NCBI GenBank assembly: GCA_037137655.1
Contig: JBAXJX010000002.1
Span: 293,730-357,729 of the forward strand
Reading direction: 5' to 3'
DNA: 64,000 nucleotides
Source: Candidatus Falkowbacteria bacterium
Lineage (GTDB): Bacteria > Patescibacteriota > Patescibacteriia > Patescibacteriales > UBA12465
In this document: in pieces, positions 40,343-59,185 of the stretch
How positions within the stretch are numbered: the stretch's first letter is position 1
How the letters are laid out: each line of letters starts with the position of its first letter
Made by a program: the position numbers and the translations under genes
The notes under the pieces: generated by a model
Databases searched by the model: none
What the model saw: only the letters and a program-made list of their open reading frames with translations
What the model was told of the DNA's origin: nothing

Positions 40343-40356
40343 TTTATTTTAAGCGC

Positions 40357-40385
40357 TTGTAGAAAATATTGATATTTGTTATAAT
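40357..40385 (+). promoter_or_regulatory. sigma70-type promoter of pilin paralog 1
   Basis: TTGTAG (40357-40362), 17-nt spacer, TATAAT (40380-40385). About 70-nt leader to the ATG at 40462. Confidence 0.6.
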
Positions 40386-40461
40386 TAAGTTGTTAATAAA
40401 AAATTGGTCATGTTTTACTGGATTTTATATTATTATAAATCCGCGTGCCAAGAAAAATTTT

Positions 40462-40947
40462 ATGAAAAACAAAAAAGCTTTTACATTGATTGAGCTTTTG
40501 ATCGTTATTGCGATCATTGCCATCATTGCTGGAATCGTTTTTGTCGCCTTGAATCCCTTGGCAAGATTCGCCGCGGCCAGAACATCACGACGTTGGGCTG
40601 ACGCTTCAGCTGTATTAACCGCTATCAAGGTTAATCAAATTGATAATGGTGGTGCTTATTGTACCTCTATTACTGCCATGCAAAATGGTATCGTTTACAT
40701 GATTGGTACTAGTACTACTGGCGCTCAACAAACTTGTCAAACAACTATCGGTACTTCAAGTGCAGTTGATTTAACAGCTTTAGTTACTGGTGGTTACCTA
40801 GGTAGTGTTCCAGTAAGTCCAAGCGGAAATTACACTTACTACAATGGAAGCACAACTGGTTACACTTTAACAAAAGCAACTAGTGGTTTAATCACTATTA
40901 CTGCTTGTGATACTGAATCAACTCCTCAACCTTCAGTTTCTAGATAG
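40462..40947 (+). CDS. type IV pilin paralog 1
   Basis: 'MKNKKAFTLIELLIVIAIIAIIAGIVFVAL' (Ala at -1, Glu5). Shared motifs 'RRWADA', 'IKVNQIDNGG', 'GGYLGSVPVSPSG', C-terminal 'ACDTES'. The ORF-track TTG start at 40369 is rejected. Confidence 0.85.
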   Translation: MKNKKAFTLIELLIVIAIIAIIAGIVFVALNPLARFAAARTSRRWADASAVLTAIKVNQIDNGGAYCTSITAMQNGIVYMIGTSTTGAQQTCQTTIGTSSAVDLTALVTGGYLGSVPVSPSGNYTYYNGSTTGYTLTKATSGLITITACDTESTPQPSVSR

Positions 40948-40965
40948 TTTTTAACAAAACTATTT

Positions 40966-41466
40966 ATGTCTAAAAAGGATCGATCTGGTTTTACTTTGCT
41001 CGAGATATTAATCGTAATTGCGATAATTGCGATTGTTCTTGCCTTAGTTTATGCCACGGTCGATCCTTTTGCTCGTTTTAAGGCGGCGCGTGATGCGCGT
41101 CGCTGGTCGGATGCTGAGAATTTATTAAATGCCATTAAAGTTAATCAAGTTGACAATAGTGGTCATTATATTAGTGCCATCGAATCGCTACCAGCTGCTA
41201 CGGTCTTTATGATTGGGACCTCGACAAGTGCTTGTGATTCACAAAACGCTAACTGTCTTATTGATCCAGCTAGTTCAACGGCCTGTGTTGATTTGAGTCA
41301 GTTAATCTCCAGCGGTTATATTGGTGCTTTACCAGTTAGTCCGCGCGGTAATGGAACTTGGAATGCTAGTTTAAGTGGATATACTTTGCAGAAGAATGCT
41401 AATGGTAGTATGATTGTGCGCGCCTGTGAGAATGAGGGGGCTCAACCTGTTAGTTTGACTAGATAA
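40966..41466 (+). CDS. type IV pilin paralog 2
   Basis: 'KDRSGFTLLEILIVIAIIAIVLALVYA', 'RRWSDA', 'IKVNQVDNSG', 'SGYIGALPVSPRG', 'ACENEG'. Confidence 0.85.
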   Translation: MSKKDRSGFTLLEILIVIAIIAIVLALVYATVDPFARFKAARDARRWSDAENLLNAIKVNQVDNSGHYISAIESLPAATVFMIGTSTSACDSQNANCLIDPASSTACVDLSQLISSGYIGALPVSPRGNGTWNASLSGYTLQKNANGSMIVRACENEGAQPVSLTR

Positions 41467-41470
41467 TTTT

Positions 41471-41971
41471 ATGAAAAATAAACGAGGCTTTACTTTAATA
41501 GAACTTTTAATTGTGATTGCTATTATTGCAATTTTAGCATCAATTGTTTTTGTAGCTTTAAATCCGCTAACTCGTTTTCGTGATGCTCGTGATTCGCGTC
41601 GCTGGGCTGATGTCCATTCCGTGTTAAATGCTATTCGTATTAATCAAGTTGATCATAAAGGTGCCTTTTTAACTCCGGTCGCCTCTATGGAAACAGGGAC
41701 GGTTTACATGATAACTAATGCCGCAGTTTCCAGTGGTTGCGCTAACTACAATAATAATTGTAAGGTTGACGTTACGGGTGATAATTATTGTGTTAATTTG
41801 GGGCAACTTTTAATTGACGGTTATTTGGGTAATGTGCCGGTTAGTCCAAGTGCTGGGGGAACATGGAGTGATTATGCTACTGGCTATACTTTGGAAAAAG
41901 ACAGTAATGATATTTTAATTGTGCGCGCCTGTGAATCAGAGGATACTCCAGAAATAAAATTAGCTAGATAA
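41471..41971 (+). CDS. type IV pilin paralog 3
   Basis: 'MKNKRGFTLIELLIVIAIIAILASIVFVAL', 'RRWADV', 'IRINQVDHKG', 'DGYLGNVPVSPSA', 'ACESED'. Confidence 0.85.
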   Translation: MKNKRGFTLIELLIVIAIIAILASIVFVALNPLTRFRDARDSRRWADVHSVLNAIRINQVDHKGAFLTPVASMETGTVYMITNAAVSSGCANYNNNCKVDVTGDNYCVNLGQLLIDGYLGNVPVSPSAGGTWSDYATGYTLEKDSNDILIVRACESEDTPEIKLAR

Positions 41972-41984
41972 TAGAGTTTTTGAA

Positions 41985-42017
41985 AACACGACTTGTAGTA
42001 AGAAGTGTTTTTTTTTT
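41985..42017 (+). terminator. probable intrinsic terminator after pilin paralog 3
   Basis: Interrupted stem aacac..ctt/aag..gtgtt followed by a T10 run (42008-42017). Confidence 0.55.
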
Positions 42018-42043
42018 GACGAAATTAATAAATCTGATATAAT
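42016..42043 (+). promoter_or_regulatory. promoter of pilin paralog 4 (first of three tandem extended -10 boxes)
   Basis: TTGACG (42016-42021), 16-nt spacer, TGaTATAAT (42035-42043). Confidence 0.55.
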
Positions 42044-42075
42044 AAATTTGATATAATAAATTTGATATAATAATT
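42034..42075 (+). repeat. 3 x 14-bp tandem repeat (c/t)TGATATAATAA(A/T)T
   Basis: Units at 42034-42047, 42048-42061 and 42062-42075. Each contains an extended -10 consensus TGATATAAT. The last TATAAT ends 6 nt before the ATG at 42078. Confidence 0.9.
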
Positions 42076-42077
42076 TT

Positions 42078-42566
42078 ATGAAAAACAAAAAAGCCTTTAC
42101 CTTAATCGAGCTTTTGATCGTAATCGCGATTATTGCTATCGTTGCCGGAATCGTTTTTGTTGCCTTAAATCCATTGGCAAGATTCGTCACGGCCAGAACA
42201 TCACGACGCCTAGCTGACGCCTCAGCTGTTTTGACTGCTATTAAAGTTCATCAAATCGATAATGGCGGTGCTTATTGTACTTCAATCACTGCTTTGGCGA
42301 GTGGGGTGACTTATATGATTGGTACTTCAACTTCTGTAACAACTGGAACAGCGGCTTGTGCTTTAAGCAGCATTGGATCTACTACAGCTGTTGATTTGTC
42401 TGCCTTAATATCTGGTGGATACTTGGGTAATGTCCCGGTAAGTCCAAAGGGTAATAGTGCCTATTCTTTTGCTTTAACTGGATATACCTTGACCAAGAAT
42501 GCTAATGGTTTAATTACTATTGCTGCTTGTGATTCTGAGTCAGGCCAACTTTCAATTTCTCGTTAA
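42078..42566 (+). CDS. type IV pilin paralog 4 (closest to paralog 1)
   Basis: 'MKNKKAFTLIELLIVIAIIAIVAGIVFVAL', 'IKVHQIDNGGAYCTSITA', 'GGYLGNVPVSPKG', 'ACDSES'. Confidence 0.85.
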   Translation: MKNKKAFTLIELLIVIAIIAIVAGIVFVALNPLARFVTARTSRRLADASAVLTAIKVHQIDNGGAYCTSITALASGVTYMIGTSTSVTTGTAACALSSIGSTTAVDLSALISGGYLGNVPVSPKGNSAYSFALTGYTLTKNANGLITIAACDSESGQLSISR

Positions 42567-45299: not shown

Positions 45300-46790
45300 T
45301 TATTTAAGACTGATAGCGTCACCGTTTGGATAAAGCGCCAGAAGTTGTGGTGAGACAGTTATAACATTGGTCCATTTGTAACCTAAACTTTCAAAAGTAT
45401 CACCACTATCAAATGATCTTTTTTTGCCATTATCAATTAGGTAAACGGCTGGGTTGGTGTTGGAGCGTAATAGTTCGCCGTCATCAAAAATAACTGGGGC
45501 AACAGTTGTATATTTAGCTAATTCTTTTTCTGTCTTTTTGATAACTGTTTTGCCTTTGAATTTGGTCTTTAGTAAAACCTTATCAATGACTGGAGCTTTA
45601 GTGTCTTCACTAACATAATACACTCCACCATTTTTACTGTTTTGAATAAGGGCGCCGTAAGCATAAGTGGAAGTGGCAGTTAAATTTGTACTTGTGCTGT
45701 AAGCGGCCAGTTCGGCAATTGTGCCATTTATGATTTCATCCTTGCTGAAGCCAATTTTTTTGAAAACAGCCTCAGTGGTAATTAAACGTTTTTTATCATC
45801 AACCAGTAACCAGATTTTTTTATCAGGAGTTTTAATTAGGGAATAGTTGGGATATTTAATTGGGGTACCGGTCGCGTATTTATTTAAAATATCAGGGTTG
45901 ACGGTAATGATTTTATTTTGATCGAAGCGGGAAATAAGTGCGCCAAAATTATCAAAAGGATTTTTTTGACCATTATCAATCAACCAAACTTTAGAACTGC
46001 TGGCAGCACGTAATAGGGTGCCGGAAGGATAAGAGATTTTTATTTCCTCTTTGCTCCAATCACCGTTTTCACCGAAGTATTTATTCCAAAGTTTGTAGAA
46101 ATTATAATTACCGTTGTAAACGTGAGGAGTGTAATTATATAAACCGGCCGTGGCAATATTTTCAATTGTAACCGTGCTTGGGTCGGCGTTGGTATTGGAA
46201 ACAGTATACGTGTTGTCTGGTTTAAAGTTGTAGGAATTTGGGTGGTCCATGTAATAACGGAATTGTAAGGCGGCACTGTTTATTTGTTTGCCGAAACCTT
46301 TATAGTAAGGGTTTGGTGACCAGTTGTCGGGGCAACCATAGCCAGTGGCCCAGTCAAGTTGGCTTTGTTGTGGGCTAGTGTCGGTAATTAAACTTTGTTC
46401 TTTTTGGGCTAGGACTAATAAAAATTTTGGGCTAACCGTTTGAGCTGGTCGGCATTTAGCTTTCTTTTCATCTTCGGTTGGCTTATCGCTTAAAGTCACA
46501 CCATCACAATCATAGTTATTAGAAGCTGCGTCATAAATGATTTCGGCGGCGGATTTATTAGCGGTGCCGTGAGCGTTGGTAGTAAAATAATTAGCCAAAA
46601 AACTATTATGATCATCTAAAAATCTTTGAATGTCGTTTTTATTCATGGAGCTATAGTCCAAAATTGCTTGGTCAGAGATGATATTACCTGGGTTAAAATT
46701 AGGGTCAACGGCCACTTGTGCATGACTTATAGCTGGCAAGGAAATGCCGGCTAAAAGGAGTAAAAGGCTTAATTTATTGATGTTTTTCAT
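45300..46790 (-). CDS. secreted protein with four C-terminal ~45-aa repeats
   Basis: Signal peptide 'KLSLLLLLAGISLPAISHA'. Repeats 'KVWLIDNGQKNPFDNFGALISRF', 'KIWLLVDDKKRLITTEAVFKKIGF', 'GVYYVSEDTKAPVID', 'AVYLIDNGKKRSFDSGDTFESLGY'. The N-terminal part has 'LLVLAQKEQSLI'. Confidence 0.7.
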   Translation of the reverse strand: MKNINKLSLLLLLAGISLPAISHAQVAVDPNFNPGNIISDQAILDYSSMNKNDIQRFLDDHNSFLANYFTTNAHGTANKSAAEIIYDAASNNYDCDGVTLSDKPTEDEKKAKCRPAQTVSPKFLLVLAQKEQSLITDTSPQQSQLDWATGYGCPDNWSPNPYYKGFGKQINSAALQFRYYMDHPNSYNFKPDNTYTVSNTNADPSTVTIENIATAGLYNYTPHVYNGNYNFYKLWNKYFGENGDWSKEEIKISYPSGTLLRAASSSKVWLIDNGQKNPFDNFGALISRFDQNKIITVNPDILNKYATGTPIKYPNYSLIKTPDKKIWLLVDDKKRLITTEAVFKKIGFSKDEIINGTIAELAAYSTSTNLTATSTYAYGALIQNSKNGGVYYVSEDTKAPVIDKVLLKTKFKGKTVIKKTEKELAKYTTVAPVIFDDGELLRSNTNPAVYLIDNGKKRSFDSGDTFESLGYKWTNVITVSPQLLALYPNGDAISLK

Positions 46791-46860
46791 GTATTTAAAG
46801 TGTTAAATTTTACCTTTTCATTATAGTACATGTCGGCAAAAATTTCAATTTAATCTCGGA

Positions 46861-46930
46861 AACCCGACCTTCACCAAAGGCTACGGCGGGTGAAATAAAA
46901 AAGCTACTATTTTTGCAGATAGTAGCTTGG
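46861..46930 (-). repeat. bipartite hairpin element, copy 1 (terminator module downstream of the Nudix gene)
   Basis: aacccgacc..ggcgggt (hairpin 1), gaaataaaaaa, then agctactat-ttttgcag-atagtagct (hairpin 2). On the minus strand hairpin 2 is followed by TTTTTTATTT. Confidence 0.85.
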
Positions 46931-46949
46931 AGACGTTGAAAATAATTTT

Positions 46950-47474
46950 TTAAAGCTTTTTTATTTTAGCCAAAGCTTGCAGATTGGCTGGATCGGTCAC
47001 AATTTCTTCGGCCTCAGCGAAAGTCAGCCATTTGGTGTCCAAAAATTCTCGCGGATCAATATTGAAATCGGCGCCGTCAGTTGAAACTAAATACCAAACG
47101 TCATAATGAGTTTTGCAGGGTTGGACTTCATTTTCAATCGGTGTAATTGTGAGTAGAAAAGGCATGACCAATTCTTTGAAAAAATCTTTAACGCCGAGCT
47201 CTTCGTTTATTTCGCGATTTAAAGCTCCTAAAATTGTTTCGCCAGCATCGATGTGTCCGCCAGGTGAGATCCATAGTCCGGATTTTTTGTGGTGCACGAT
47301 AAAGACTTTTTTCGTGCTTGGATTGTAAGGCAAAAAGTAAGCACAAAAATGGTTGGCCGGATCCTCATCGCGAGTTGGCAAACCTGCGGCTAATTTTTGT
47401 TGATAAGCTTGGTAAGTTGCCGCATCACATAATGATGGGTTTATGACATTGATAATTGATTCAATTGTTTTCAT
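46950..47474 (-). CDS. Nudix hydrolase
   Basis: Full Nudix box 'GGHIDAGETILGALNREINEELGV'. Confidence 0.9.
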   Translation of the reverse strand: MKTIESIINVINPSLCDAATYQAYQQKLAAGLPTRDEDPANHFCAYFLPYNPSTKKVFIVHHKKSGLWISPGGHIDAGETILGALNREINEELGVKDFFKELVMPFLLTITPIENEVQPCKTHYDVWYLVSTDGADFNIDPREFLDTKWLTFAEAEEIVTDPANLQALAKIKKL

Positions 47475-47584
47475 GTTATTGATTTTTAATGAATGTTTCT
47501 TTGTAATTTAACTCTAGCACGGATGTATTTTTATGTTAAGTGCTTTTTATAAAAAGTTTATACCGCCATTGGTTTAATGGTTGC

Positions 47585-48595
47585 ATGGCTAAAATAAAAA
47601 ATGGTAAAAAATCAATCTTCGGCGGTGAAATTGTGATTTATAAGACTAAAGACGGTAATCCTGATTTAATTGTGAAAATGGAGAAAGAGACTATTTGGTT
47701 AACGCAAGCGCAAATCGCCAATCTTTTTTGTGTTGAGAGAAGTGTAATTACGAAACATTTGCGTAATATTTTTAACGATTTTGAATTAAACGAAAAAAGC
47801 AATGTGCATTTTTTGCACATTGCTAATTCTGGTAAACCAGTTAAATTTTATAGCTTGGATGCTATTATCTCCGTCGGTTATCGTGTTAACTCTAGGCGTG
47901 CGACTCAATTCAGAATTTGGGCGACTAAAGTTTTGAAAAATTACATTATAAAAGGCTACGCAATTAATGAGAGAGGTTTAAGGGAAAACAAGAATTTAAG
48001 ATTGGACGAATTAGAGAAAACAATTAATTTTTTGCAAAGAATTATTAGCACCAAACAATTAAAATCAATTGAAGCCAACGGTTTATTAAAAGTGATAACT
48101 GATTATGCTAATTCTTGGATAGTTTTGCAAAAATATGACGAGAGAAAGTTAAAACTTGTAAGTCGTGGCAAGATTATTAATAATCTGAATTATGATTTTT
48201 CTAAAAGTGAAATAAATGAACTTAAGGCCAAGTTAATTAAGGAAAAACAGGCGACTGACATTTTTGGTTTGGAGCGGGAAGGTGCCTTGGAAATGATTAT
48301 TAAAAATTTAGCTCAAACTTTTGCGGGGAAAAATTTATATTCAAGCGTGGAAGAACGCGCCGCTCATTTATTATATTTTGTAATTAAAGATCATCCATTT
48401 GTTGACGGCAACAAGCGCATCGGTTCATTTTTGTTTATTTTGTTTTTGCTTAAGAATAACTATCTTTACAATAAAAAAGGCGAGAAGAAAATTAATGATA
48501 GCGCCTTAACGTCGTTGGCGCTGTTAATTGCCGAAAGTGACCCAAAGGAAAAGGACATGATGGTGGCGCTGATATCGAATTTGTTGATTAATTAA
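47585..48595 (+). CDS. RhuM-family N-terminal domain fused to a Fic/Doc (death-on-curing type) domain
   Basis: 'IWLTQAQIANLFCVERSVITKHLRNIF', 'KFYSLDAIISVGYRVNSRRATQFRIWATKVL' (RhuM-like). C-terminal 'HPFVDGNKRIGSFLF' matches the Doc-type H-x-F-x-D-G-N-K-R motif. Start at ATG 47585 rather than GTG 47540. Confidence 0.8.
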   Translation: MAKIKNGKKSIFGGEIVIYKTKDGNPDLIVKMEKETIWLTQAQIANLFCVERSVITKHLRNIFNDFELNEKSNVHFLHIANSGKPVKFYSLDAIISVGYRVNSRRATQFRIWATKVLKNYIIKGYAINERGLRENKNLRLDELEKTINFLQRIISTKQLKSIEANGLLKVITDYANSWIVLQKYDERKLKLVSRGKIINNLNYDFSKSEINELKAKLIKEKQATDIFGLEREGALEMIIKNLAQTFAGKNLYSSVEERAAHLLYFVIKDHPFVDGNKRIGSFLFILFLLKNNYLYNKKGEKKINDSALTSLALLIAESDPKEKDMMVALISNLLIN

Positions 48596-48662
48596 ACCCG
48601 ACCTTCGCTAAAGCTACGGCGGGTGAAATAAAAAAGCTACTATTTTTGCAGATAGTAGCTTT
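48595..48662 (-). repeat. bipartite hairpin element, copy 2
   Basis: aacccgaccttcgctaaagctacggcgggtgaaataaaaaagctactatttttgcagatagtagct. Near-identical to copy 1 except in the loop of hairpin 1. Overlaps the RhuM-Doc stop codon. Confidence 0.85.
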
Positions 48663-48685
48663 AAGGGAATTAGAAATATGATCAT

Positions 48686-49447
48686 TTAAACTCCTATTTC
48701 TTTGTTGGCGCTAAATACTGGGTCATCTAAAGTAATTCTAGTGTTTATTGTGTTAGAAATTATTTTTTTTGGAAAACCAGTTAAAGCAATGATTTTATTC
48801 AGAAAATCAATAGTTGAAATTACTTGCTTAGAATATTCTTCGGTTAGCCGGTTTATTTCTTCTTGATTGGAAGCATTATGTTCTTGAAAAATTTCGATTA
48901 AATACGCTTCAATGCTTAGATAATCACGATCTTTGTATTTTTCGAGTAAAATTTCAAACACTTCCAACCAGTCTAATTCCGAATTTAATATTATTTCTAT
49001 TCTTGCTGGTATTTCTGCGCGTGCGTTTTCGCACTCGCCAATAATACTAGTTAAAATAACAAATAACACCCCATTATTATTGTTCAAGGTCCAGTGTAAT
49101 CGCTTAAGAGAGTATTCTTTTCCTTTGGCCCAAACTGGTTCGTGTTTAACAATAATTTTTTGCCCGTCTTTTGTAACTAATCCCGTGTAATCGTCGCAAG
49201 AGAGACTGTCATTATTTGTTGTTATATATCTATTTTTTACGACATATATGGCAATTATATTTACGGAAGCAAAAATCAAGACATAAATCATTATTGGATT
49301 TTTTATAATATCCATAAATTCTGGTTCATGATTTTCACCTCTACTGCAAAAAGCAATACCAAGCGTTGTGAAAAATAACAATAAAAAATTAACAAGTATT
49401 GGAAAGTTGCTAAAGAATAAAAAATAGCTTCTAATAAATTTTTTCAT
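48686..49447 (-). CDS. hypothetical membrane protein (2 N-terminal TM helices plus a ~170-aa soluble domain)
   Basis: 'FLFFSNFPILVNFLLLFFTTLGIAF' and 'IMIYVLIFASVNIIAIYVV'. No recognised domain. Confidence 0.7.
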   Translation of the reverse strand: MKKFIRSYFLFFSNFPILVNFLLLFFTTLGIAFCSRGENHEPEFMDIIKNPIMIYVLIFASVNIIAIYVVKNRYITTNNDSLSCDDYTGLVTKDGQKIIVKHEPVWAKGKEYSLKRLHWTLNNNNGVLFVILTSIIGECENARAEIPARIEIILNSELDWLEVFEILLEKYKDRDYLSIEAYLIEIFQEHNASNQEEINRLTEEYSKQVISTIDFLNKIIALTGFPKKIISNTINTRITLDDPVFSANKEIGV

Positions 49448-49534
49448 GATTTCTAGATTTTTGGTGAGACATTTATTTAGTTGTCAAACAACAAGTTTGA
49501 TTTTTTAAATTATCATTTTAACTAATGTTTGTCA

Positions 49535-49580
49535 AGGCGCCAAATAAAAAAGCTACTATTTTTGAAGATAGTAGCTTGGA
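49535..49580 (-). repeat. bipartite hairpin element, copy 3 (hairpin 2 intact, hairpin 1 reduced to 'ggcgcc')
   Basis: ggcgccaaataaaaaagctactat-ttttgaag-atagtagcttgg. Confidence 0.8.
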
Positions 49581-49608
49581 TTTTGTAAGTCTATATTTGC
49601 TTTTCAGT

Positions 49609-49824
49609 TTATTTAAGCCCTCTAAGTCTTATATTGCTCTTTATAGTGAGTGAAAAAGTTATAAAACTACAAGCAAAACTAATTACTGTTAGTATGGCAC
49701 CGAATAAGCTTGGCTTATCGATAAACAATAAACCACAAAAGATAAAACTACAAATACCGAGAATTGTGGTATATATGCCTTTGTTGCGATATCGTTTTTC
49801 TCTAAAATAATGTACATTTTTCAT
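49609..49824 (-). CDS. small 2-TM membrane protein (71 aa)
   Basis: Basic N-terminus 'FREKRYRNK', TM 'IYTTILGICSFIFCGLLFI' and 'LFGAILTVISFACSFITFSLTI'. Second gene of module A. Confidence 0.6.
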   Translation of the reverse strand: MKNVHYFREKRYRNKGIYTTILGICSFIFCGLLFIDKPSLFGAILTVISFACSFITFSLTIKSNIRLRGLK

Positions 49825-49850
49825 CGTTGCTAGATTTTTTGATTAAACAC

Positions 49851-50060
49851 TTATTCGCTTTTTGGTTCTTTTGGTTCTTTTGACCCATCTTTTGCTTTTA
49901 ATACTTCTTCTTTGATGGCATCAATTGCAAATGATGTTGCGAGTGAAGCAAGTCCACATGCCAGTAACGCGTAAAAAGTAGAATGTTTTGTTATGGCATT
50001 ATAGAGTGAGAAAATAGTGCCGGCAGCAGCAAAACTTGCTATGAATTTTAAAATGTTCAT
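49851..50060 (-). CDS. small 2-TM membrane protein with charged C-tail (69 aa), paralog of 50428..50646
   Basis: 'GLASLATSFAIDAIKEEV' aligns with 'GSTLATMGFTLDAIEKMI' of the paralog. Tail 'KAKDGSKEPKEPKSE' versus 'KPVETKRPKSE'. Confidence 0.65.
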   Translation of the reverse strand: MNILKFIASFAAAGTIFSLYNAITKHSTFYALLACGLASLATSFAIDAIKEEVLKAKDGSKEPKEPKSE

Positions 50061-50108
50061 AATGTATGGTTTTTTTGGTGAGTATTTATATGTGAAATAA
50101 CTGCCAAT

Positions 50109-50137
50109 AATGTATCATGAATACCTATGGTTGTCAA
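50109..50137 (-). promoter_or_regulatory. promoter of small-TM module A
   Basis: Minus strand: TTGACA (50137-50132), 17-nt spacer, TACATT (50114-50109). It directly abuts terminator copy 4. Confidence 0.6.
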
Positions 50138-50140
50138 ATA

Positions 50141-50180
50141 GAAAATAAAAAAGCTACTATTTTTGAAGATAGTAGCCTGG
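50141..50180 (-). repeat. bipartite hairpin element, copy 4 (hairpin 2 only)
   Basis: gaaaataaaaaagctactat-ttttgaag-atagtagcctgg. Confidence 0.8.
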
Positions 50181-50197
50181 TGTGTCGAGATTGTTTT

Positions 50198-50395
50198 TTA
50201 TTTGCCTTTAATAATTTTTTTTAGGCAGGTTAAGAATCCATACATGAAAACGCCTCCTCCGATTGGTGCAAATAAAACTGGTATCATGTGACTTATAATA
50301 GATAGATCTAGAACGTCTATTGTAAAGCACGTCAATGTTAGTATAAATGCTCCAAATGCTGTTGATGCTCCGATTATTGTTCCGTTAGGGTTCAT
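50198..50395 (-). CDS. small 2-TM membrane protein (65 aa)
   Basis: TM 'IIGASTAFGAFILTLTCFTIDVL' and 'MIPVLFAPIGGGVFMYGFLTCL'. Second gene of module B. Confidence 0.6.
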   Translation of the reverse strand: MNPNGTIIGASTAFGAFILTLTCFTIDVLDLSIISHMIPVLFAPIGGGVFMYGFLTCLKKIIKGK

Positions 50396-50427
50396 TTCTA
50401 TAAATTTTAGGTGAGTGTTAAAATTGT

Positions 50428-50646
50428 TTATTCGCTTTTTGGTCTTTTTGTTTCTACTGGTTTATTTGCGACAGCATTATTAATCATTTTTTCGATTGCA
50501 TCAAGAGTAAAGCCCATCGTTGCTAAAGTGCTGCCAGCGGAGCCTATCATGAAAAAAAAATTGTGATTTTCTATAAAAGCACAAAGGTTAACAATAATTA
50601 AGACGGCGCATAGTGTCGCCATGGAAATGGAAATTGAGATTCTCAT
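50428..50646 (-). CDS. small 2-TM membrane protein with charged C-tail (72 aa), paralog of 49851..50060
   Basis: See 49851..50060. The 3' ends share the DNA ttattcgctttttgg(t/c)c. Confidence 0.65.
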   Translation of the reverse strand: MRISISISMATLCAVLIIVNLCAFIENHNFFFMIGSAGSTLATMGFTLDAIEKMINNAVANKPVETKRPKSE

Positions 50647-50693
50647 GATATATGGTTTTTAGGTGAATATTAAAATGTGAAATAACTGCCGAT

Positions 50694-50722
50694 ATTGTAT
50701 CACGTTTTTAGTAAAAAGTCAA
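50694..50722 (-). promoter_or_regulatory. promoter of small-TM module B
   Basis: Minus strand: TTGACT (50722-50717), 17-nt spacer, TACAAT (50699-50694). The leader shares GGCAGTTATTTCACAT with module A. Confidence 0.6.
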
Positions 50723-50733
50723 TATGTGGCAAA

Positions 50734-50761
50734 ATAAAAAACCCAATCGTGATGATTGGGT
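50734..50761 (-). terminator. intrinsic terminator after the 50780..51541 gene
   Basis: 8-bp stem acccaatc/gattgggt, loop gtgat, with a T-run on the minus strand. Confidence 0.75.
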
Positions 50762-50779
50762 TTTAAGGAATAGTTTGTT

Positions 50780-51541
50780 TTATTGTTCTTGGAATTCTAC
50801 TCCGGCCGTAAAATATTCGGCAAAAGTTTCTTTGATTTCTGGGATTAATTCTTCCCAAGAAGAAGTTTTATCTTTGGTAAATTCAATTTGATAATTGCCG
50901 GGACGTTCTGCACAAATGGTGCCGTTAGCAACAAATAAGCCGTGAATTTTACACATTTTTCTGCCCAACTCCAAATGGCGAAAAGTCTCAAAGTTTACAA
51001 TGAATTTCATAAAATTTCCGTTGGGAGATTTTTCAATTATGATTTTTTGTTTATCACCAATTTCTTTGGTAACTTGGATAGACTCCGCACATAAATGACC
51101 AAAGATAAATTTCAAGATAGTGTCTAATAATTGATCAAAGTTGGTGGCTGGAGATTTCATAATATTTAATTCATGTGAACTGGAATAACCAATTTTTACC
51201 AGCTGTGGCACTTCCATCATTAGATCGTTAATGCTTGATTGGTTGAAATTGTGAGGCATTGAAGTTGCAAACATTAAGACGTCTTTAGCCTTGATGGAAT
51301 TTTTAGAAACGCGAATGGAAAATTTTAGATCTTTTAAACTGTGAAAAAGATTTTTATCTAAATCATCAACTTTGTAAGCGTCTAATGAAACCTCTGAAAC
51401 ATCTTTCAGTGCTTCACTTTTTTTATTTTTCTTTCCGTAAGAAAAAATCGCCATGACTCCGAACAATGCTCCCGCAAAAATAACCATGCCTAATCCGATG
51501 TAATAACCAGTCGTACTGGCTAAAATAATATTTATTACCAT
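50780..51541 (-). CDS. membrane-anchored protein with C-terminal Nfu_N-like domain (tentative)
   Basis: N-terminal TM 'YYIGLGMVIFAGALFGVMAIF'. The C-terminal 'IIIEKSPNGNFMKFIVN..IHGLFVANGTICAERPGNYQIEFTKDKTSSWEELIPEIKETFAEYF' resembles the Nfu/NifU N-terminal scaffold domain pattern. Confidence 0.6.
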   Translation of the reverse strand: MVINIILASTTGYYIGLGMVIFAGALFGVMAIFSYGKKNKKSEALKDVSEVSLDAYKVDDLDKNLFHSLKDLKFSIRVSKNSIKAKDVLMFATSMPHNFNQSSINDLMMEVPQLVKIGYSSSHELNIMKSPATNFDQLLDTILKFIFGHLCAESIQVTKEIGDKQKIIIEKSPNGNFMKFIVNFETFRHLELGRKMCKIHGLFVANGTICAERPGNYQIEFTKDKTSSWEELIPEIKETFAEYFTAGVEFQEQ

Positions 51542-51675
51542 TTGTTAAAGTACCATTTTATCGTCCCAGCACTATACGGGACTAGTCTAATAACCGCTAC
51601 TAGACAGGCGGATTTTGTTGGCTACACGCCGTTCAAGATATGTGTCTTTACCTCATAATTCCAAACCTTAGGAAT
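51542..51675 (-). ncRNA. candidate structured 5' leader (unclassified cis-regulatory RNA)
   Basis: A ~134-nt leader between the predicted promoter and the ATG at 51541. Locally GC-rich with stems gtccc/gggac (51563-51582), ctagt/actag (51582-51603), ggcg/cgcc (51607-51630) and a competing ccgc/gcgg pairing (51594-51611). No Shine-Dalgarno. Confidence 0.35.
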
Positions 51676-51681
51676 ACAGAA

Positions 51682-51710
51682 TTTATATCATAACCATTAA
51701 TATTTGTCAA
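51682..51710 (-). promoter_or_regulatory. promoter of the 50780..51541 gene
   Basis: Minus strand: TTGACA (51710-51705), 17-nt spacer, TATAAA (51687-51682). Confidence 0.6.
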
Positions 51711-51719
51711 TAACATAAC

Positions 51720-51749
51720 AAAAAAATGAGCCATTTCTGGCTCATTTTT
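51720..51749 (-). terminator. intrinsic terminator after clpB (potentially bidirectional)
   Basis: 8-bp stem atgagcca/tggctcat, loop tttc, flanked by A7 and T5 runs. Confidence 0.8.
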
Positions 51750-51761
51750 GTATAGCGGCTT

Positions 51762-54404
51762 TTATTTCACATTCAAAAGAATTTCATCTTTTAGACCAAG
51801 GTCAATCGTCACCTTATCGCCGTCTTTAATTTTGCCCTCCACAATATTCATCGCTAATTCATCTAAAATTAGAGTTTGAATCACGCGTTTAAGTGGTCGA
51901 GCACCATAAGTAATATCAAAGCCTTTTTCAGCTAAAAGTTTCTTCACCTTCTGACTAATCTTAATAGTCACGCTGCGGTTAAGTAGGCGACTAGCCACTT
52001 TAGCTAATTCCAATTCCACGATTTCACCCAAAGCTTCTTTGCTTAAATTCTTGAAGATTACAATTTCATCAATACGATTTAAGAATTCTAATTTGAAATA
52101 TTCTTTTAGAACTTTATCAATCTTTTCTTTCATCTCGCCTTCATGAATTTTTTGTTCTTCAGCCTCATTTTGACCGTCATTAAAACCAATAGAGAATTGT
52201 TTGATAACTTCATTGCCCAAATTAGAAGTCATGATGATAATAGTGTTTTTGAAGTTCACGATGCGACCCTTGGAATCGGTTAAGCGGCCATCATCTAAAA
52301 TCTGCAACAACATGTTGAAAGTTTCAGGATGAGCTTTTTCAATTTCATCAAAGAGCACGACACTATATGGACGACGACGAATTTTTTCGGTTAATTGTCC
52401 ACCTTCTTCATGACCGATGTAGCCCGGAGGGGAACCGATTAATTTAGCCACACTATGTTTTTCCATGAACTCACTCATATCCAAGCGGATCAAAGCGTTT
52501 TCATCATTAAACATAAAGTGCGCTAAAGATTTAGCCAGTTCTGTTTTACCGACACCGGTTGGACCAACGAACATGAAAGAACCAATCGGTTTTTTCTCTT
52601 CGTTAATACCAGCACGACTACGACGCAAAGCATTAGCAATGGCATGAATCGCTTCATCTTGGCCGATAACATATTTCTTTAATTCATCTTCGGCGTGGGC
52701 TAATTTCTTGATTTCATTTTCCATCATTTTTACGACCGGCACACCAGTCCAACGGGAAACAACTTTGGCGATATCTTCTTCGTCCACTTCTTCCTTCAAA
52801 ATGCGTTGGCCCTTTTTCTGAATCTTAATTAATTCTTCTTCTTGTTGTTTAATTTCTTTTTCTAATTTTGGAATTAAGTCGTAACGAATTTGGGCGACCT
52901 TAGTTAGGTCATCGCCGCGCCGTTGAATAATTTCGGAATTAGTTTTTAACTCTTCAATTTTCTTTTTATTGTCACGGATTTTACTGATAATACTTTTTTC
53001 GTTATTCCAATGTAATTCTAATTGACCAGCCTTTTCTTTTATTTCCGCTAATTGTTTACTGATAGTTTTTATTTTACTGGCGCTATTTTTATCTTTAGTG
53101 GCTCCGATACCAGCCTTGGCAATTTCCAGTCGTCGAGTTTCACGCTTTAAATTATCAAGTTCTTCGGGCATGGAATCAATTTCCATGCGCAATGAAGATG
53201 TGGCTTCATCCATTAAATCCACCGCCTTATCTGGCAAGAAACGATCTGTGATATAGCGACCAGAAAGTTGCGCCGCCGCAATTAAAGCATTGTCGGTAAT
53301 GCGAACGCCATGATGCACTTCATATTTTTCTTTGATGCCACGCAAAATCGCGACCGTGTCTTCGATGCTCGGTTCATTCACCATAATCGGTTGGAAGCGA
53401 CGTTCGAGCGCTTGATCCTTTTCAATATATTTTTGATATTCTTTGGTGGTGGTTGCGCCAATAGTTCTGATTTCACCGCGAGCCAAGGCTGGTTTTAACA
53501 TGTTAGAAGCATCCATTGAACCTTCGGATGATCCGGTACCAACAATGGTATGTAATTCGTCGATGAATAAAATTATTTTACCTTCTTGCGCTTGGACTTC
53601 TTTTAAAACTGCCTTTAATCTTTCTTCAAATTCACCACGGAATTTAGCACCAGCCACAAGTGCGCCCAAATCAAGTGATACCACTTCTTTGGACTTCAAC
53701 ATTTCTGGCACATCACCAGCGACAATGCGTTGGGCTAAACCTTCAACGATAGCAGTTTTTCCAGTTCCAGCTTCACCGATTAACACCGGATTATTTTTGG
53801 TCCGACGAAGAAGTACTTGCATGATGCGACGAATTTCACTATCACGACCGATAACCGGGTCAAGCTTTTCTTCGCGCGCCAAGGCAGTTAAATTGATAGT
53901 ATATTTTTCTAACACACGGAATTTAGTGTCTGGATCTGGGTCGGAAATTTTTTGGTTGCCGCGTAATTCTTTTAAGATATTTAAAACTTTATTATGTTCG
54001 ATCTTAAAGTTTAATAAGATTTTTTGCGCAGAAGAATTAACGCCGATTAAAGCGAGTAAAATGTGTTCGGTGGAAATATATTCATCACCCATACCATCGG
54101 CTTCTTTTTTGGCGCGTTCAAGTATCATGGCTACCTCATTAGTGCCTTGAACAGCTTGAACCGGGCCAATGGAAGGGGAGACCTTGCCTTTAGGTAATTT
54201 GTTGATGCCCTTTAGCACAAAATCCTCGATCATATCAGGATCGATTTTGGCCTTTTCTAGAATCGGGCGAATTAAGCTCTCGTTTTGTTGGAGTAGCGCT
54301 AAAAGTAAATGAAGCGCCTCAATGTATTCTTGCCCGAAATCTTGGGCGATAATTTGGGCGTTAATAATCGCTTCTTGCGATTTGCTGGTAAATTTGTTGA
54401 ACAT
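51762..54404 (-). CDS. clpB: ClpB-type AAA+ disaggregase (long M-domain) with a ClpC-like 'IGF' loop
   Basis: N-domain 'HLLLALLQQ'. D1 '[20 protein letters not shown]' and '[12 protein letters not shown]'. ~130-aa coiled-coil M-domain. D2 '[17 protein letters not shown]' and '[11 protein letters not shown]'. '[14 protein letters not shown]' lies between 'TSNLGNE' and 'FLNRIDE'. Confidence 0.9.
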
Positions 54405-54954: not shown

Positions 54955-55419
54955 TTATTCTTTTTCTTCTTCTTGGTCCTTGTCTCTTATTTCTTCGTAT
55001 TCGTAGAAGCTCAGTTGTTTTATCAATTCTTTTATTACGGCCACGTGTCGTTTAACGTAAAGTGGATCAACGGAGTCATCTTCGATTACGGGCATCTCCA
55101 CAAGGTCTTCGCTTGGGGCAATACTATTTTTTATTACCGGAATTATCTTTGGGAGTAAATCGTCCCATTCAAAACACTTGCCTTTTTCGAAACCAATTTC
55201 ATAAGGGCTGATGGTCATAGCGGCCACTCCTTTTATTTTCATTATATTCCTACCTAAACATTCTAACGTTTCCCGGTATTTTTCGTAACATTCGCTGTAG
55301 TCAGCGGTTAAAACACAATTCGTTGATTCAAACATTATGTTGGGAATATTAAGTAGTTTTCTATCCACGCTGATATACATATAGTGAGGATCACCTGTTT
55401 TTTCAACTCTTATTTTCAT
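54955..55419 (-). CDS. Nfu_N-like (Nfu/NifU N-terminal scaffold-type) domain protein with acidic tail (tentative)
   Basis: 'MKIRVEKTGDPHYMYISV' and 'IKGVAAMTISPYEIGFEKGKCFEWDDLLPKIIPVI' match the Nfu_N pattern (I.GV....F.PDFITV.K....W..L.P.I). Strong SD: AAAGGAGGTCGAG-ATG. Confidence 0.6.
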   Translation of the reverse strand: MKIRVEKTGDPHYMYISVDRKLLNIPNIMFESTNCVLTADYSECYEKYRETLECLGRNIMKIKGVAAMTISPYEIGFEKGKCFEWDDLLPKIIPVIKNSIAPSEDLVEMPVIEDDSVDPLYVKRHVAVIKELIKQLSFYEYEEIRDKDQEEEKE

Positions 55420-56536: not shown

Positions 56537-59185
56537 ATGAAGATAAATTTTAAAAAAGTTGAAGATAAATTCGGCGCAGAACTTAACGGTGGATTTTTTT
56601 ATTGGAATGCGACCTTAAGTCAATCAGCTATATTTTTAAATCGCTTGCGTCGGCAGGTGAATAAACTAATTAATTTTAGCGCCGCGCTTGTTGGTGCGGC
56701 TGGTCTCTTGTCTTTAGCTTATTATTTTTATCAAAACTTCCAAACGATTAATAGTTTTTCTTTAGCGCAAATAAGTTTTTTAATCCAAACTCCAAGTGTT
56801 TGGATTTTGTTGTTTTTATTTTCAATTTTGGTTGATACTTTTTTGTTTTATCGTTTAACGGAAGAGGAATATCAATTGGGACGAATTAAAAATTTCTCTG
56901 TCGATGATTTTGGTGGTGATAAAATTGCAGTGGATCTTGGATTTAGTACTAATAGCTTGATTATTGTGGAAAATGCCTATGAGTTGGCCGAAAAATTAAA
57001 ACAAAGTGAGGTTAATCCCCGCCATTTATTTTGGGTACTTTTACGTAATAATAAAGTGCGCACTTTATTCTCACGTTTAAATGTTGATTATGCCGCCTTG
57101 GTTGATAAATTAAAGCGTCATCTTTTAGTGACTGATCCGGCGAGCGCCCAGAATTTAATTCTTTCCGAGAAAACCCAGGAAGTTTTAATTCAAGCCTATC
57201 TTAATGCTTACAATGACAAACGCCGCGCAGTTGATGTTTTGGATCTTTTAGATTTTTGTTATAACGCTGATGATCTTTTGGGAGAAATTTTATTTGACTG
57301 TGAAATTAGTCAAGAAAAATTAGTTAATGCCATTGCCTGGTTTCGTTCGAATGATAAAGTTATTATTGATCGTAAAATTTTCCGAGAGATGGCGCGCTTA
57401 AAACCGGGCAGCTCTATGGATCGCGCGTACACAGCGCTGTCGACACCAACTCTTGATTATTTTTCCGAGGATTTAACCTTGCGCGCTAAATATAATTATT
57501 TTGGTATTTGTTTAAATCGCGATAAAGAGATAAAAGATATTTTTGATACTTTTGCTAGTGGCTGTTTTGGCGCTTTGTTGGTTGGTTCAGTTGGGGTTGG
57601 TAAGCGAACAATCGTAGAGGGCATCGCGCAGTTAATGGTGAAAGAAGATGTGCCGGAAATTTTTAAAGACAAGCGTTTAGTGGAATTGGATGCGGCCCGA
57701 CTTATTGGCGGTGTGAGCGCGGCTGAGGCTGAAGAAAGATTAATGACAATTATCAGTGAGATTGTTCATGCTAAAAATGTGATTTTATTTGTTGATAATA
57801 TTTCCGCGATTACCGGTATTAGTTCTGGTGGCGACGGCAGCTTGGATTTGGCTCAAGTTTTTGCCAATCTCTTAACCCGTGGCAACGTCTATTGTTTAGC
57901 GACAATTAGTCCGGAGAATTATGCCGAATTTGTGGAAGGCAGTGCTTTAGGTAATGCTATGCCGAAAATTGAAGTGCGCGAACCGGATCACAATAGCGCT
58001 ATTCAAATGCTTCAAACTAAGGTGGCTTATTTTGAAAGTAAGTATGGTATTTATTTTGATTATGATGCTATTGCTAGTGTAGTAGAACTATCGGCGCGTT
58101 ACGTGAATGATAAATTTTTACCGGAAAAAGCCATTGATATTTTGCGCTTAGCGGCGGTTCGAGTGGCTAATATTTGTAAACATGATAAGAAACATTGTTT
58201 TTGTTCTCAAGACGACGTGGCTGATATTATTGCGGAGTTTACTGGTGTACCAGTAGCTCGAGTTGGAGAAAAAGAAACAGAAAAACTTTTGAATCTAGAG
58301 GCGAGTATTCATCAACGCATGATTGGTCAAGAAGAAGCGGTTAATGCTATCTCTGGTAGTTTGCGTCGGGCGCGGGCGGAAATGCGTGAAGGGAAGCGAC
58401 CAATTGCTAGTTTTTTATTTTTAGGACCAACCGGTGTGGGTAAAACAGAATTAGCCAAAACAGTCGCAGAGGTTTATTTTGGTGATGAAAAAAATATGGT
58501 TCGTTTGGATATGAGTGAATATCAAATGTCAGATAGCGTTGTGAAAATGATTGGTGATAGCGCCGGTAATTTAGGTTATTTAACTGAAGCCGTACGTCAT
58601 CATCCTTTTTCTCTAATCTTGTTTGATGAAATTGAAAAGGCTAATCCGGATGTTTTAAATTTATTTTTGCAATTAATGGATGATGGACGATTAACTGACG
58701 GCAGCGGCCGCACGATTGATTTTACTAATGCGATTATTGTGGCGACTTCTAATGCTGGAGCTTTATATATTGAAGAGGCGGTGGAGACGGGTGTGGATAT
58801 TAACATTATTAAACAAGAGATTATTGATAACCAGTTAAATAAGTTTATGCGCCCAGAACTTATTAATCGTTTTGACGGGGTGATAGTTTTTAAACCTTTA
58901 TCTTTTGCTAATGTGGTCGAAATTGCTAAATTGATGTTAAATAAGATTGGTCGGAGCTTGGAGGAAAAAGGAATTGTCTTTGCGCCGACTCAATCCGGGG
59001 TGGAGCGTTTGGCCCAACTAGGTTATGATCCAAAATTCGGTGCTCGCCCGCTTCGTCGTTTATTGCAAGATAGAATTGAAAATGAAGTGGCTAATTTATT
59101 GTTGGCTAAAAAAATTCGTCGCCGAGACACTATTATAGTTAATGATAAAGGAGAATTAGAGGTTGGCAAGGCGAATGAGTTGTAG
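56537..59185 (+). CDS. membrane-anchored ClpB/ClpC-like AAA+ protein with a degenerate first nucleotide-binding domain
   Basis: Two N-terminal TM helices (aa ~46-66 and ~85-105), and a Clp_N-like repeat 'NPRHLFWVLLRNNKVRTLFSRLNVD'. D1 Walker A is 'GSVGVGKRT' (Lys-Arg instead of Lys-Thr), Walker B is 'ILFVDNIS' (DN instead of DE), and the Arg-finger position is 'ALGNAMPK'. D2 is canonical: '[13 protein letters not shown]', '[10 protein letters not shown]', 'GARPLRR'. Confidence 0.85.
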   Translation: MKINFKKVEDKFGAELNGGFFYWNATLSQSAIFLNRLRRQVNKLINFSAALVGAAGLLSLAYYFYQNFQTINSFSLAQISFLIQTPSVWILLFLFSILVDTFLFYRLTEEEYQLGRIKNFSVDDFGGDKIAVDLGFSTNSLIIVENAYELAEKLKQSEVNPRHLFWVLLRNNKVRTLFSRLNVDYAALVDKLKRHLLVTDPASAQNLILSEKTQEVLIQAYLNAYNDKRRAVDVLDLLDFCYNADDLLGEILFDCEISQEKLVNAIAWFRSNDKVIIDRKIFREMARLKPGSSMDRAYTALSTPTLDYFSEDLTLRAKYNYFGICLNRDKEIKDIFDTFASGCFGALLVGSVGVGKRTIVEGIAQLMVKEDVPEIFKDKRLVELDAARLIGGVSAAEAEERLMTIISEIVHAKNVILFVDNISAITGISSGGDGSLDLAQVFANLLTRGNVYCLATISPENYAEFVEGSALGNAMPKIEVREPDHNSAIQMLQTKVAYFESKYGIYFDYDAIASVVELSARYVNDKFLPEKAIDILRLAAVRVANICKHDKKHCFCSQDDVADIIAEFTGVPVARVGEKETEKLLNLEASIHQRMIGQEEAVNAISGSLRRARAEMREGKRPIASFLFLGPTGVGKTELAKTVAEVYFGDEKNMVRLDMSEYQMSDSVVKMIGDSAGNLGYLTEAVRHHPFSLILFDEIEKANPDVLNLFLQLMDDGRLTDGSGRTIDFTNAIIVATSNAGALYIEEAVETGVDINIIKQEIIDNQLNKFMRPELINRFDGVIVFKPLSFANVVEIAKLMLNKIGRSLEEKGIVFAPTQSGVERLAQLGYDPKFGARPLRRLLQDRIENEVANLLLAKKIRRRDTIIVNDKGELEVGKANEL

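Follow-up and report, generated by a model that had tools for sequence, protein, structure and literature searches.

The DNA analysed here is a stretch of 64,000 nucleotides (nt) from Candidatus Falkowbacteria bacterium (Patescibacteriota; assembly GCA_037137655.1, contig JBAXJX010000002.1, forward-strand positions 293,730 to 357,729), which we call the window and to which all positions refer unless another locus is named. Between clpB on one side and the block p496–LigB/Memo–orf95–def–fmt on the other lies an island (46861–51761) that carries a Nudix hydrolase gene, a gene for a RhuM domain fused to a Doc-type Fic domain (RhuM-Doc), two genes for 253-amino-acid (aa) membrane-anchored proteins (TM253A and TM253B) and four small genes (s71, s69, s65 and s72) for proteins with two transmembrane (TM) segments. 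A first-pass annotation made from the letters alone had proposed that these genes might form a set of defence or addiction modules. We think it rather probable that the region is instead a layered, lineage-specific variable islet in the clpB–p496 spacer and not one system, because its parts are separate transcription units that appear to differ in evolutionary age. The features of the island are as follows.

46820–46848, minus strand: promoter of p496, TTGAAA-17-TATAAT (11/12 match)
46860–46928, minus strand: direct-repeat copy 1, 69 nt, downstream of the Nudix gene, with hairpin c1 (46901–46928) and a second hairpin (about 46860–46892)
46950–47474, minus strand: Nudix hydrolase, 174 aa (PF00293)
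47585–48595, plus strand: RhuM-Doc fusion, 336 aa from ATG 47585 or 351 aa from GTG 47540
47798–47824: hairpin within the RhuM coding sequence, a perfect 11-bp palindrome at codons 72–80
48594–48661, minus strand: direct-repeat copy 2, 68 nt, downstream of TM253A, with hairpin c2 (48634–48661) and a second hairpin
48686–49447, minus strand: TM253A, 253 aa, with the cassette-type 5' untranslated region (5'UTR) CTCACCAAAAA in front
49448–49608, minus strand: cassette module with hairpin c3 (49550–49577), T-run, TTGACA (49530–49535) and 5'UTR CTCACCAAAAA (49458–49468)
49609–49824, minus strand: s71, 71 aa, two-TM, B-type, second gene of the s69–s71 unit
49851–50060, minus strand: s69, 69 aa, two-TM, A-type, with a K/E/P-rich C-terminal tail
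50061–50197, minus strand: cassette module with hairpin c4 (50151–50178), promoter TTGACA-17-TACATT with extended -10 (50109–50137) and conserved 5'UTR (50072–50091)
50198–50395, minus strand: s65, 65 aa, two-TM, B-type, with the cassette 5'UTR kept (50405–50424)
50428–50646, minus strand: s72, 72 aa, two-TM, A-type, paralogue of s69 and homologue of a 63-aa open reading frame (ORF) in the relative L082
50647–50779, minus strand: module with the TM253B terminator (50738–50764), the s72 promoter TTGACT-17-TACAAT (50694–50722) and the s72 5'UTR (50657–50676)
50780–51541, minus strand: TM253B, 253 aa, N-terminally anchored
51542–51761, minus strand: clpB–TM253B spacer with the clpB terminator (51722–51749) and a promoter-like TTGACA-17-TATAAA (51682–51710)
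51762–54404, minus strand: clpB, which borders the island on one side

The ORFs of the first-pass annotation are all present where it placed them, including the small ones of 71, 69, 65 and 72 aa, and its domain calls hold in Pfam (NUDIX, E=8e-16; Virulence_RhuM, E=1.6e-21; Fic, E=7e-13). Each of the small proteins does have two hydrophobic segments, and the two 253-aa proteins, both with N-terminal hydrophobic segments, are indeed unrelated to each other (BLASTP E=8.7). The annotation had also recognized a repeated hairpin. This element, AAGCTACTAT-N8-ATAGTAGCTT, occurs four times in the 64 kb (0.00 expected), always within the island. Read on the minus strand, every copy folds stably (z -3.5 to -5) and has TTTTTTATTT after the stem, which is how an intrinsic terminator is built; the region of hairpin c1 reaches -25.2 kcal/mol (z -3.5). 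The statement that every minus-strand unit ends in this same hairpin was too broad, since TM253B and clpB have terminators of other kinds (50738–50764 and 51722–51749). The 5'UTR of about 140 nt in front of TM253B is without significant structure (z -0.25), and Rfam gave no matches in the island, either at the gathering threshold or at E<=1. On its right-hand side, the ancestral clpB–p496 spacer is delimited by the promoter of p496.

To place the island among relatives, clpB loci were fetched from species-representative genomes (comparison loci are labelled L below), and a metagenome relative, L082, was found through p496; synteny was established by tblastn with all window proteins together with bookkeeping of ORFs. 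In L002, L004, L008, L011 and L017, clpB is directly followed by p496–LigB–orf95–def, with a clpB–p496 gap of 21–144 bp, at a ClpB identity to the window of 75% in L002. L082 is the nearest relative (ClpB 95% and p496 75% identical), and its gap of 1.3 kb contains three small-TM cassettes and nothing else. The corresponding gap in the window is 4.97 kb. In the more distant L007 and L009 the gap is occupied by unrelated housekeeping genes. The island is AT-rich for this genome, with a GC content of 0.331 versus 0.365, the fourth lowest among 237 5-kb segments. The tight junction in relatives and the AT-richness of the island together support a lineage-specific insertion into a normally tiny spacer, and the view of the first-pass annotation that the region is accessory rather than core thus stands, as does its remark that no integrase or transposase marks it: integrase, transposase and tRNA genes are all absent from the flanks, and the 10 kb on each side hold no recombinase, although direct repeats do bracket a part of the island (see below). 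An identical gene order was found on four or more long contigs, of 61 kb to 965 kb, that come from separate assemblies.

The small two-TM genes are embedded in a repeated regulatory module that is best seen in L082, where the spacer holds three single-gene cassettes encoding 62, 63 and 97 aa. The order of elements there is terminator hairpin, TTTTTTATTTGCAAAA, a near-consensus TTGACA-17-TAtAaT promoter with a preceding TG, and a 5'UTR that ends ...TTGACATTTTAATAyTCACCAAAATCATATATT-ATG. The hairpin sequence AAGCTACTATCT..ATAGTAGCTTTTTTATTT and the 5'UTR blocks are common to the window and L082, one L082 cassette terminator being identical to the window hairpin, and the conserved 5'UTR of the cassettes can be written ..ATTTTAATAyTCACCwAAAA..ATG. 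In a MAFFT alignment of six modules from both species, invariant blocks coincide with the T-run, the -35 and extended -10 elements and the 5'UTR. By MAFFT-based figures, the L082 modules are 88–92% identical to one another while their three ORFs are without detectable relationship; module identity within the window and between the window and L082 is 61–74%. Complete modules in the window are those of s72 and s69. In front of s65 only the cassette 5'UTR is kept; this gene lacks an upstream promoter and terminator of its own, and s72 and s65 would hence form one transcription unit. As for s71, it has a start context in common with TM253A (repeat D10). As a separate observation, positions 9800–9990 of L082, upstream of p496, contain three or four palindromic units (GGAATGACACTGGATTCCCG.. 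and CCGGATCGTAGTCCGGAATGACA) that resemble repetitive extragenic palindromes or miniature inverted-repeat elements (REP/MITE-like) and are absent from the window.

Among the proteins themselves, s69 and the 63-aa ORF of L082 each match s72 at E=7e-6, and in a word-indexed search of 5.8 billion proteins these three were the sole members of the A-type group, a real but tiny family. The B-type ORFs have only marginal mutual similarity. Within the window, intergenic mini-ORFs with two TM segments cluster in the island, and the leader CTCACCwAAAA is likewise found nowhere else in the 64 kb. A Shine-Dalgarno-like motif precedes 3/50 window ORFs of at least 150 aa, starts being preceded by A/T-rich sequence, and this Patescibacterium appears to initiate translation largely without Shine-Dalgarno pairing. 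We considered the CTCACC leader as an unusual ribosome-binding site and rejected this reading, given a genome without Shine-Dalgarno motifs and a leader specific to the island. Neither the small TM proteins nor TM253A and TM253B have a meaningful match in PADLOC or PHROGs, and the small ones and TM253A have none in Pfam either; viral contigs scanned for the hairpin module, TM253A and TM253B yielded no relatives. A two-peptide bacteriocin was also considered and dropped, as no double-glycine leader or transporter is present.

The two larger membrane proteins, both called orphans in the first-pass annotation, differ in this respect. TM253A, predicted to begin with two TM helices and to be soluble towards its C-terminus, has one distant homologue (P0005, 26% identity, with a common MKKFIxxYFLFFS N-terminus) on an unrelated contig from the Candidate Phyla Radiation (CPR), where it lies among hypothetical membrane proteins and has no modules in common with the island. 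For TM253B the label does not hold: its relatives were missed by the word-indexed search, and an exhaustive HMMER search gave 62 representative clusters of similar length, indicating membership in a CPR-wide family of membrane-anchored proteins with an Nfu_N-like C-terminus. The family has conserved SLPHxF/PQL/SHEL/KSPA blocks, and its C-terminus matches PF08712 (Nfu_N) in 14/41 members and gives a profile match to PDB 2k1h. Compared with stand-alone Nfu_N proteins (PF08712; PDB 2k1h SeR13, 1pqx), about 80 C-terminal residues of TM253B correspond, but TM253B is anchored in the membrane at its N-terminus and has a further conserved domain, about 130 aa long (SLPHxF..PQL..SHEL..KSPA). AlphaFold models of TM253B and TM253A, with pLDDT (predicted local distance difference test) scores of 39 and 46, are too poor for use. 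All four TM253B homologues examined in context are single genes among housekeeping genes, which argues against a role in defence: one (L092 6001–7346) has a cysteine desulfurase gene on one side and a NifU_N gene on the other, one adjoins rplJ/rplL and two are near cell-envelope and transport genes. The last three contexts are unrelated to iron-sulfur (Fe-S) assembly. The same Nfu_N-like C-terminal motif occurs in p154 (54955–55419, minus strand), upstream of clpB (hhalign 92%). Together with the desulfurase/NifU_N context, this motif is a hint that CPR bacteria have an Fe-S-related family of membrane-anchored proteins of their own.

The remaining two genes form a 1.73-kb, divergently transcribed pair. 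Repeats of 68–69 nt at 46860–46928 and 48594–48661, spaced 1733–1734 nt apart, bracket exactly Nudix and RhuM-Doc, the second copy beginning at the RhuM-Doc stop codon. The copies (D1/D12) are 98% identical over 52 nt, and the longer part of the repeat has no third copy in the window. Each comprises the terminator hairpin and a second hairpin, which has the same stem but a different loop in the two copies. A closer look at this second hairpin (46860–46892 and 48594–48626) finds the outer stem CCCGCCG/GGTCGGG in both copies, with GCCTTTGGT versus GCTTTAGC as loop and inner mini-stem, which looks like compensatory change. Logan unitigs (L084, L089 and L091; SRR12676969/70) end in the hairpins, giving pieces of 940 bp (TM253A) and 1744 bp (RhuM-Doc and Nudix); they end there because of the repeats, and polymorphism is not demonstrated thereby. 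Repeats of this kind fragment assemblies of the locus and could hide structural variants.

The Nudix box is intact (GHIDAGETILGALNREINEELGV, fitting GX5EX7REUXEEXGU). The protein scores 58.7 bits against generic Nudix, 53 bits against a phage MutT/Nudix PHROG and 36.6 bits against PDC-S07, and no named NCBIfam subfamily matches above threshold, sub-threshold matches being all that was seen. In two plasmid homologues of RhuM-Doc that were inspected, the Nudix gene is not a neighbour. RhuM-Doc itself has the RhuM module at the N-terminus (about 200 aa) and the Doc-type Fic domain at the C-terminus, with scores above the curated cutoffs for Fic (PF02661, 49.6 bits vs 24) and DOC_P1 (TIGR01550, 47.3 bits vs 38.65), and its motif HPFVDGNKR aligns with HCFYNANKR of the Doc structure PDB 9vzc (E=4.6e-6). 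Residues 30–349 match positions 6–323 of 327 in the PADLOC profile PDC-S23 (PDLC04965; E=5.4e-119), a bioinformatic candidate family rather than a validated system. Plasmid entries annotated as 'virulence protein RhuM/Fic/DOC family protein' are 40–46% identical (tblastn, 96% coverage at 46%); one such homologue, H1, lies inside a type I restriction-modification (R-M) operon, hsdM-hsdS-rhuM-hsdR, and another behind a Tn3 transposase.

From these matches we conclude that RhuM-Doc is a normal, stand-alone member of the known RhuM/Fic/DOC family (PF13310 + PF02661; PDC-S23), with the same full-length architecture, the motif HxFxDGNKR and the intragenic hairpin described below. What sets it apart is its position in a Patescibacterium, with a divergent Nudix partner and outside an R-M operon or transposon: the island and the 10 kb flanking it on each side contain neither R-M nor other PADLOC matches. 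In relation to Phd-Doc of P1, the Doc-type Fic domain above the curated cutoff, the kinase-type NKR motif and the alignment with the Doc structure are shared, but here the Doc domain is fused to a RhuM module and a Phd/YefM antitoxin gene is missing, the adjacent ORFs including none of that type and the upstream neighbour being the divergent Nudix gene. By homology to P1 Doc, the Doc domain is predicted to have kinase activity: once released, it would phosphorylate EF-Tu and thereby stop translation, and the N-terminal RhuM part would serve as a built-in sensor or regulator. It has been proposed that RhuM is a toxin domain, frequently in fusion with Doc and found in R-M and defence neighbourhoods (Anantharaman et al. 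2013, PMC3710099); we found no experimental work on RhuM/Fic/DOC proteins in the searchable literature. In a plasmid of [Eubacterium] eligens (L133 325–1125), RhuM and Fic/Doc are annotated as two adjacent genes (462 and 327 nt), which points either to a fusion that is naturally split or to a frameshift.

The strongest terminator-like match in the region (-20.5 kcal/mol, z -4.8) lies within a coding sequence, at 47798–47824 in RhuM-Doc. We compared 23 RhuM or RhuM-Doc genes, of which 11 come from plasmids, 11 from viral contigs and one from the window, and a hairpin at this one fixed position turned up in every RhuM gene examined. The motif LDxIISVGYRV could be located in 22 of them, and in 15 of those the lowest-energy 34-nt segment of the whole gene is centred 37–71 nt upstream of it; in the other seven, which are mostly GC-rich, the hairpin at the site comes to within about 5 kcal/mol of the lowest value for the gene. 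Hairpins 25–60 nt upstream of the motif, which extends to YxLDxIISVGYRV, are seen in the window, L086 (5174–5192) and L087 (5175–5197), with further examples in L126–L132, L098, L101, L119 and L123. The stems are 8–12 bp long and often perfect, and their sequences, though mutually unrelated, covary. When the best hairpin per gene was tabulated, a procedure fitted to structure, 8–10 of 10 positions were paired in 20/20 genes, with several Watson-Crick types per stem position; MAFFT, which is blind to structure, places most of the hairpins in the same columns. Synonymous shuffles that preserve the protein and the codon usage weakened the structure in all 20 of 20 genes, and in 14 of these no more than 5/100 shuffles reached the native energy. 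The hairpin is under selection at the level of the nucleic acid. It could act in mRNA processing, pausing or attenuation, or as an intragenic operator. An antisense terminator was considered and rejected as the conserved function, the T-run being present only in AT-rich homologues. We found no description of a RhuM intragenic hairpin in the searchable literature.

Taken together, these observations suggest the following history. The oldest layer would be the array of small proteins of 62–97 aa, hairpin-like in topology (two TM segments, predicted N-in/C-in), that is common to the window and L082. Each of its cassettes is bounded by a module of about 100–140 nt composed of terminator hairpin, T-run, near-consensus extended -10 promoter and conserved 5'UTR, and we infer that homologous recombination between modules allows the array to expand, fuse and swap cargo. 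Repeated modules of this kind would account for the duplications, for the fusion into two-gene units and for the capture of TM253A and of Nudix/RhuM-Doc. TM253A, seated in a cassette-type module, may represent a second layer, and TM253B a third, as an ordinary member of its CPR family that is here by chance. Nudix and RhuM-Doc would be the fourth and youngest layer. Their flanking 69-nt repeats resemble the signature of a single-crossover integration or a duplication at the terminator module; a single crossover with a circular or tandem donor would leave such repeats and would permit precise loss of the module as well.

The alternative that the first-pass annotation had raised is that the whole island is one defence or addiction set, in which RhuM-Doc, Nudix and the TM proteins cooperate, for example as sensor/toxin and membrane-disrupting effectors. 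The region is accessory, RhuM-Doc matches a defence candidate family, and Nudix, Fic/Doc and small TM proteins are known in general to recur in conflict systems (PMC3710099), all of which would fit. The support is weak beyond this one gene, however. A PADLOC-type scan recognizes a single candidate gene and no cluster of several recognized defence systems, the TM proteins match neither PADLOC nor PHROGs, and the Nudix protein is closer to generic Nudix than to PDC-S07. Each part has its own promoter and terminator; the small-TM array of L082 exists without RhuM-Doc, Nudix or the 253-aa genes; relatives of TM253B are found among ribosomal, UvrC and Fe-S genes; and RhuM-Doc homologues elsewhere have other neighbours (type I R-M genes in one case, a Tn3 element in another) and no Nudix or small TM genes. 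RhuM-Doc is the only component with a conflict-system pedigree, a coordinated multi-gene defence system in the island is not supported, and we regard the cooperative set as unlikely. About equally improbable, or slightly more so, is an arrangement that is ancestral and was deleted in relatives, or an assembly chimera produced by the repeats. Short-read unitigs do break exactly at the hairpins, and a single close relative is available; but the same order recurs on the separately assembled long contigs, and because five increasingly distant genomes share the tight clpB–p496 junction, parsimony favours one gain over several precise losses. Several points nevertheless weigh against the layered islet and the mechanism proposed for it. 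As the cassette array is known in two species only, TM253A, TM253B, Nudix and RhuM-Doc may have been lost in L082 rather than gained here. No strain without the Nudix/RhuM-Doc module was found, the unitigs merely breaking at the repeats, and no recombinase was found within 10 kb on either side. The promoter and 5'UTR parts of the modules are only 61–73% identical within this genome, so that homogenization by recombination is clear only for the hairpins and for L082. Similarity of the B-type ORFs to those of L082 is marginal (s71 vs the 97-aa ORF, E=0.09), and s71 and s65 are seemingly uncalled in the NCBI record, where four matches carry the consecutive locus tags WCK37_04710-04725 and leave no room for these two, a caveat as to their coding status.

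What the small TM proteins do is a separate question. We tentatively and only slightly favour constitutively expressed protective proteins of an immunity or exclusion type over toxins, because their promoters are strong and apparently unregulated, no antitoxin partner or antisense promoter was found for them and they have diversified rapidly. Somewhat less likely, in our estimate, is that they are membrane-active toxins, either of type I toxin-antitoxin (TA) loci or as holin or abortive-infection effectors, with the conserved 5'UTR as the target of an antisense or trans RNA antitoxin. Small size, hydrophobicity, tandem duplication and conserved untranslated regions are typical of type I TA loci, and the proteins here are small and hydrophobic, tandemly duplicated and preceded by untranslated regions conserved in two species. 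Like ldr/rdl, ibs/sib, zor/orz and aapA/isoA, they are encoded in tandem units with conserved flanks in an intergenic spacer. They differ from these loci in having two TM segments, no evident antisense RNA gene and neighbouring cargo ORFs that are unrelated, and at 62–97 aa they are larger than most type I toxins; no antisense promoter above background and no Rfam match were found, and the near-consensus promoters have no sign of a repression site. The charged C-terminal tail of the A-type proteins resembles class II holins, and the topology would be compatible, but a holin cassette was rejected for want of a lysin or prophage context and of any PHROG match or viral relative. An integron-like or recombinase-driven cassette array, on the model of attC cassettes or of the orphan immunity arrays of Bacteroidales, seems very improbable. 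It would explain the variable ORFs between conserved hairpin repeats and the foreign two-gene module captured between repeats, but the 10 kb on either side contain no integrase or recombinase, the hairpins have perfect 10-bp stems followed by a T-run and are thus terminators and not imperfect attC sites, and the cassettes have promoters of their own. The recombinase-associated acquired interbacterial defence (AID) clusters of Bacteroidales are reportedly orphan immunity arrays with promoter-bearing intergenic repeats. Diverse small genes behind near-identical promoter repeats are a likeness to them, especially in L082 with its 88–92% identical modules and unrelated ORFs; differences are the absence here of an adjacent recombinase and of recognizable immunity families, the number of cassettes (3–5) and the CPR host.

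Beyond the island, several neighbours were recorded. The secreted 496-aa protein p496 (45300–46790, minus strand) has no Pfam or NCBIfam match, yet it is kept downstream of clpB and upstream of LigB/Memo–def–fmt in Patescibacteria whose ClpB is only 58–75% identical (p496 loci: L002, L004, L005, L007–L009, L011, L017 and L082), and is a conserved, uncharacterized partner of clpB. The window contains two ClpB-like genes a few kb apart (51762–54404, minus strand, and 56537–59185, plus strand). A second ClpB paralogue is also present in L082 (1311–3950), where ClpB gives tblastn segments of 33–43% identity; there its N-terminus is extended by a long hydrophobic stretch, suggesting that this Clp ATPase is anchored in the membrane. 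Just beyond fmt, at 38615–42566 (L001 1076–5027), a PilM-like gene is followed by four tandem N_methyl (type IV pilin-like) genes of 162–185 aa; this cluster is typical CPR pilus machinery and unrelated to the island.

The island itself is of modest interest, and the leads that it offers are the modular cassette array and the intragenic hairpin of RhuM. There is perhaps some chance, well short of an even one, that at least one of these is both true and new, either as a gene-capture scaffold that works without a recombinase or as a previously undescribed cis-element. Patescibacteria are reported to have very few recognized defence systems (PMC12366544), which makes an islet with RhuM-Doc a useful data point. 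The comparison of the two species illustrates how a tiny spacer in a streamlined genome may accrete genes through repeated regulatory modules. If the scaffold reading is true, this CPR bacterium with its reduced genome would use the modules to assemble and reshuffle an array of envelope-conflict genes of its own, and would already have captured a Doc-type toxin module. If the hairpin reading is true, a cis-element would control a widespread toxin or defence family, either as an RNA processing or pausing signal or as an intragenic operator for the DNA-binding domain of RhuM. The hairpin, which is kept with changing sequence in Patescibacteria, Proteobacteria, Bacteroidota, Firmicutes and viral contigs, is the most transferable result of this analysis and would provide a handle on the regulation of an abundant, unstudied toxin family.

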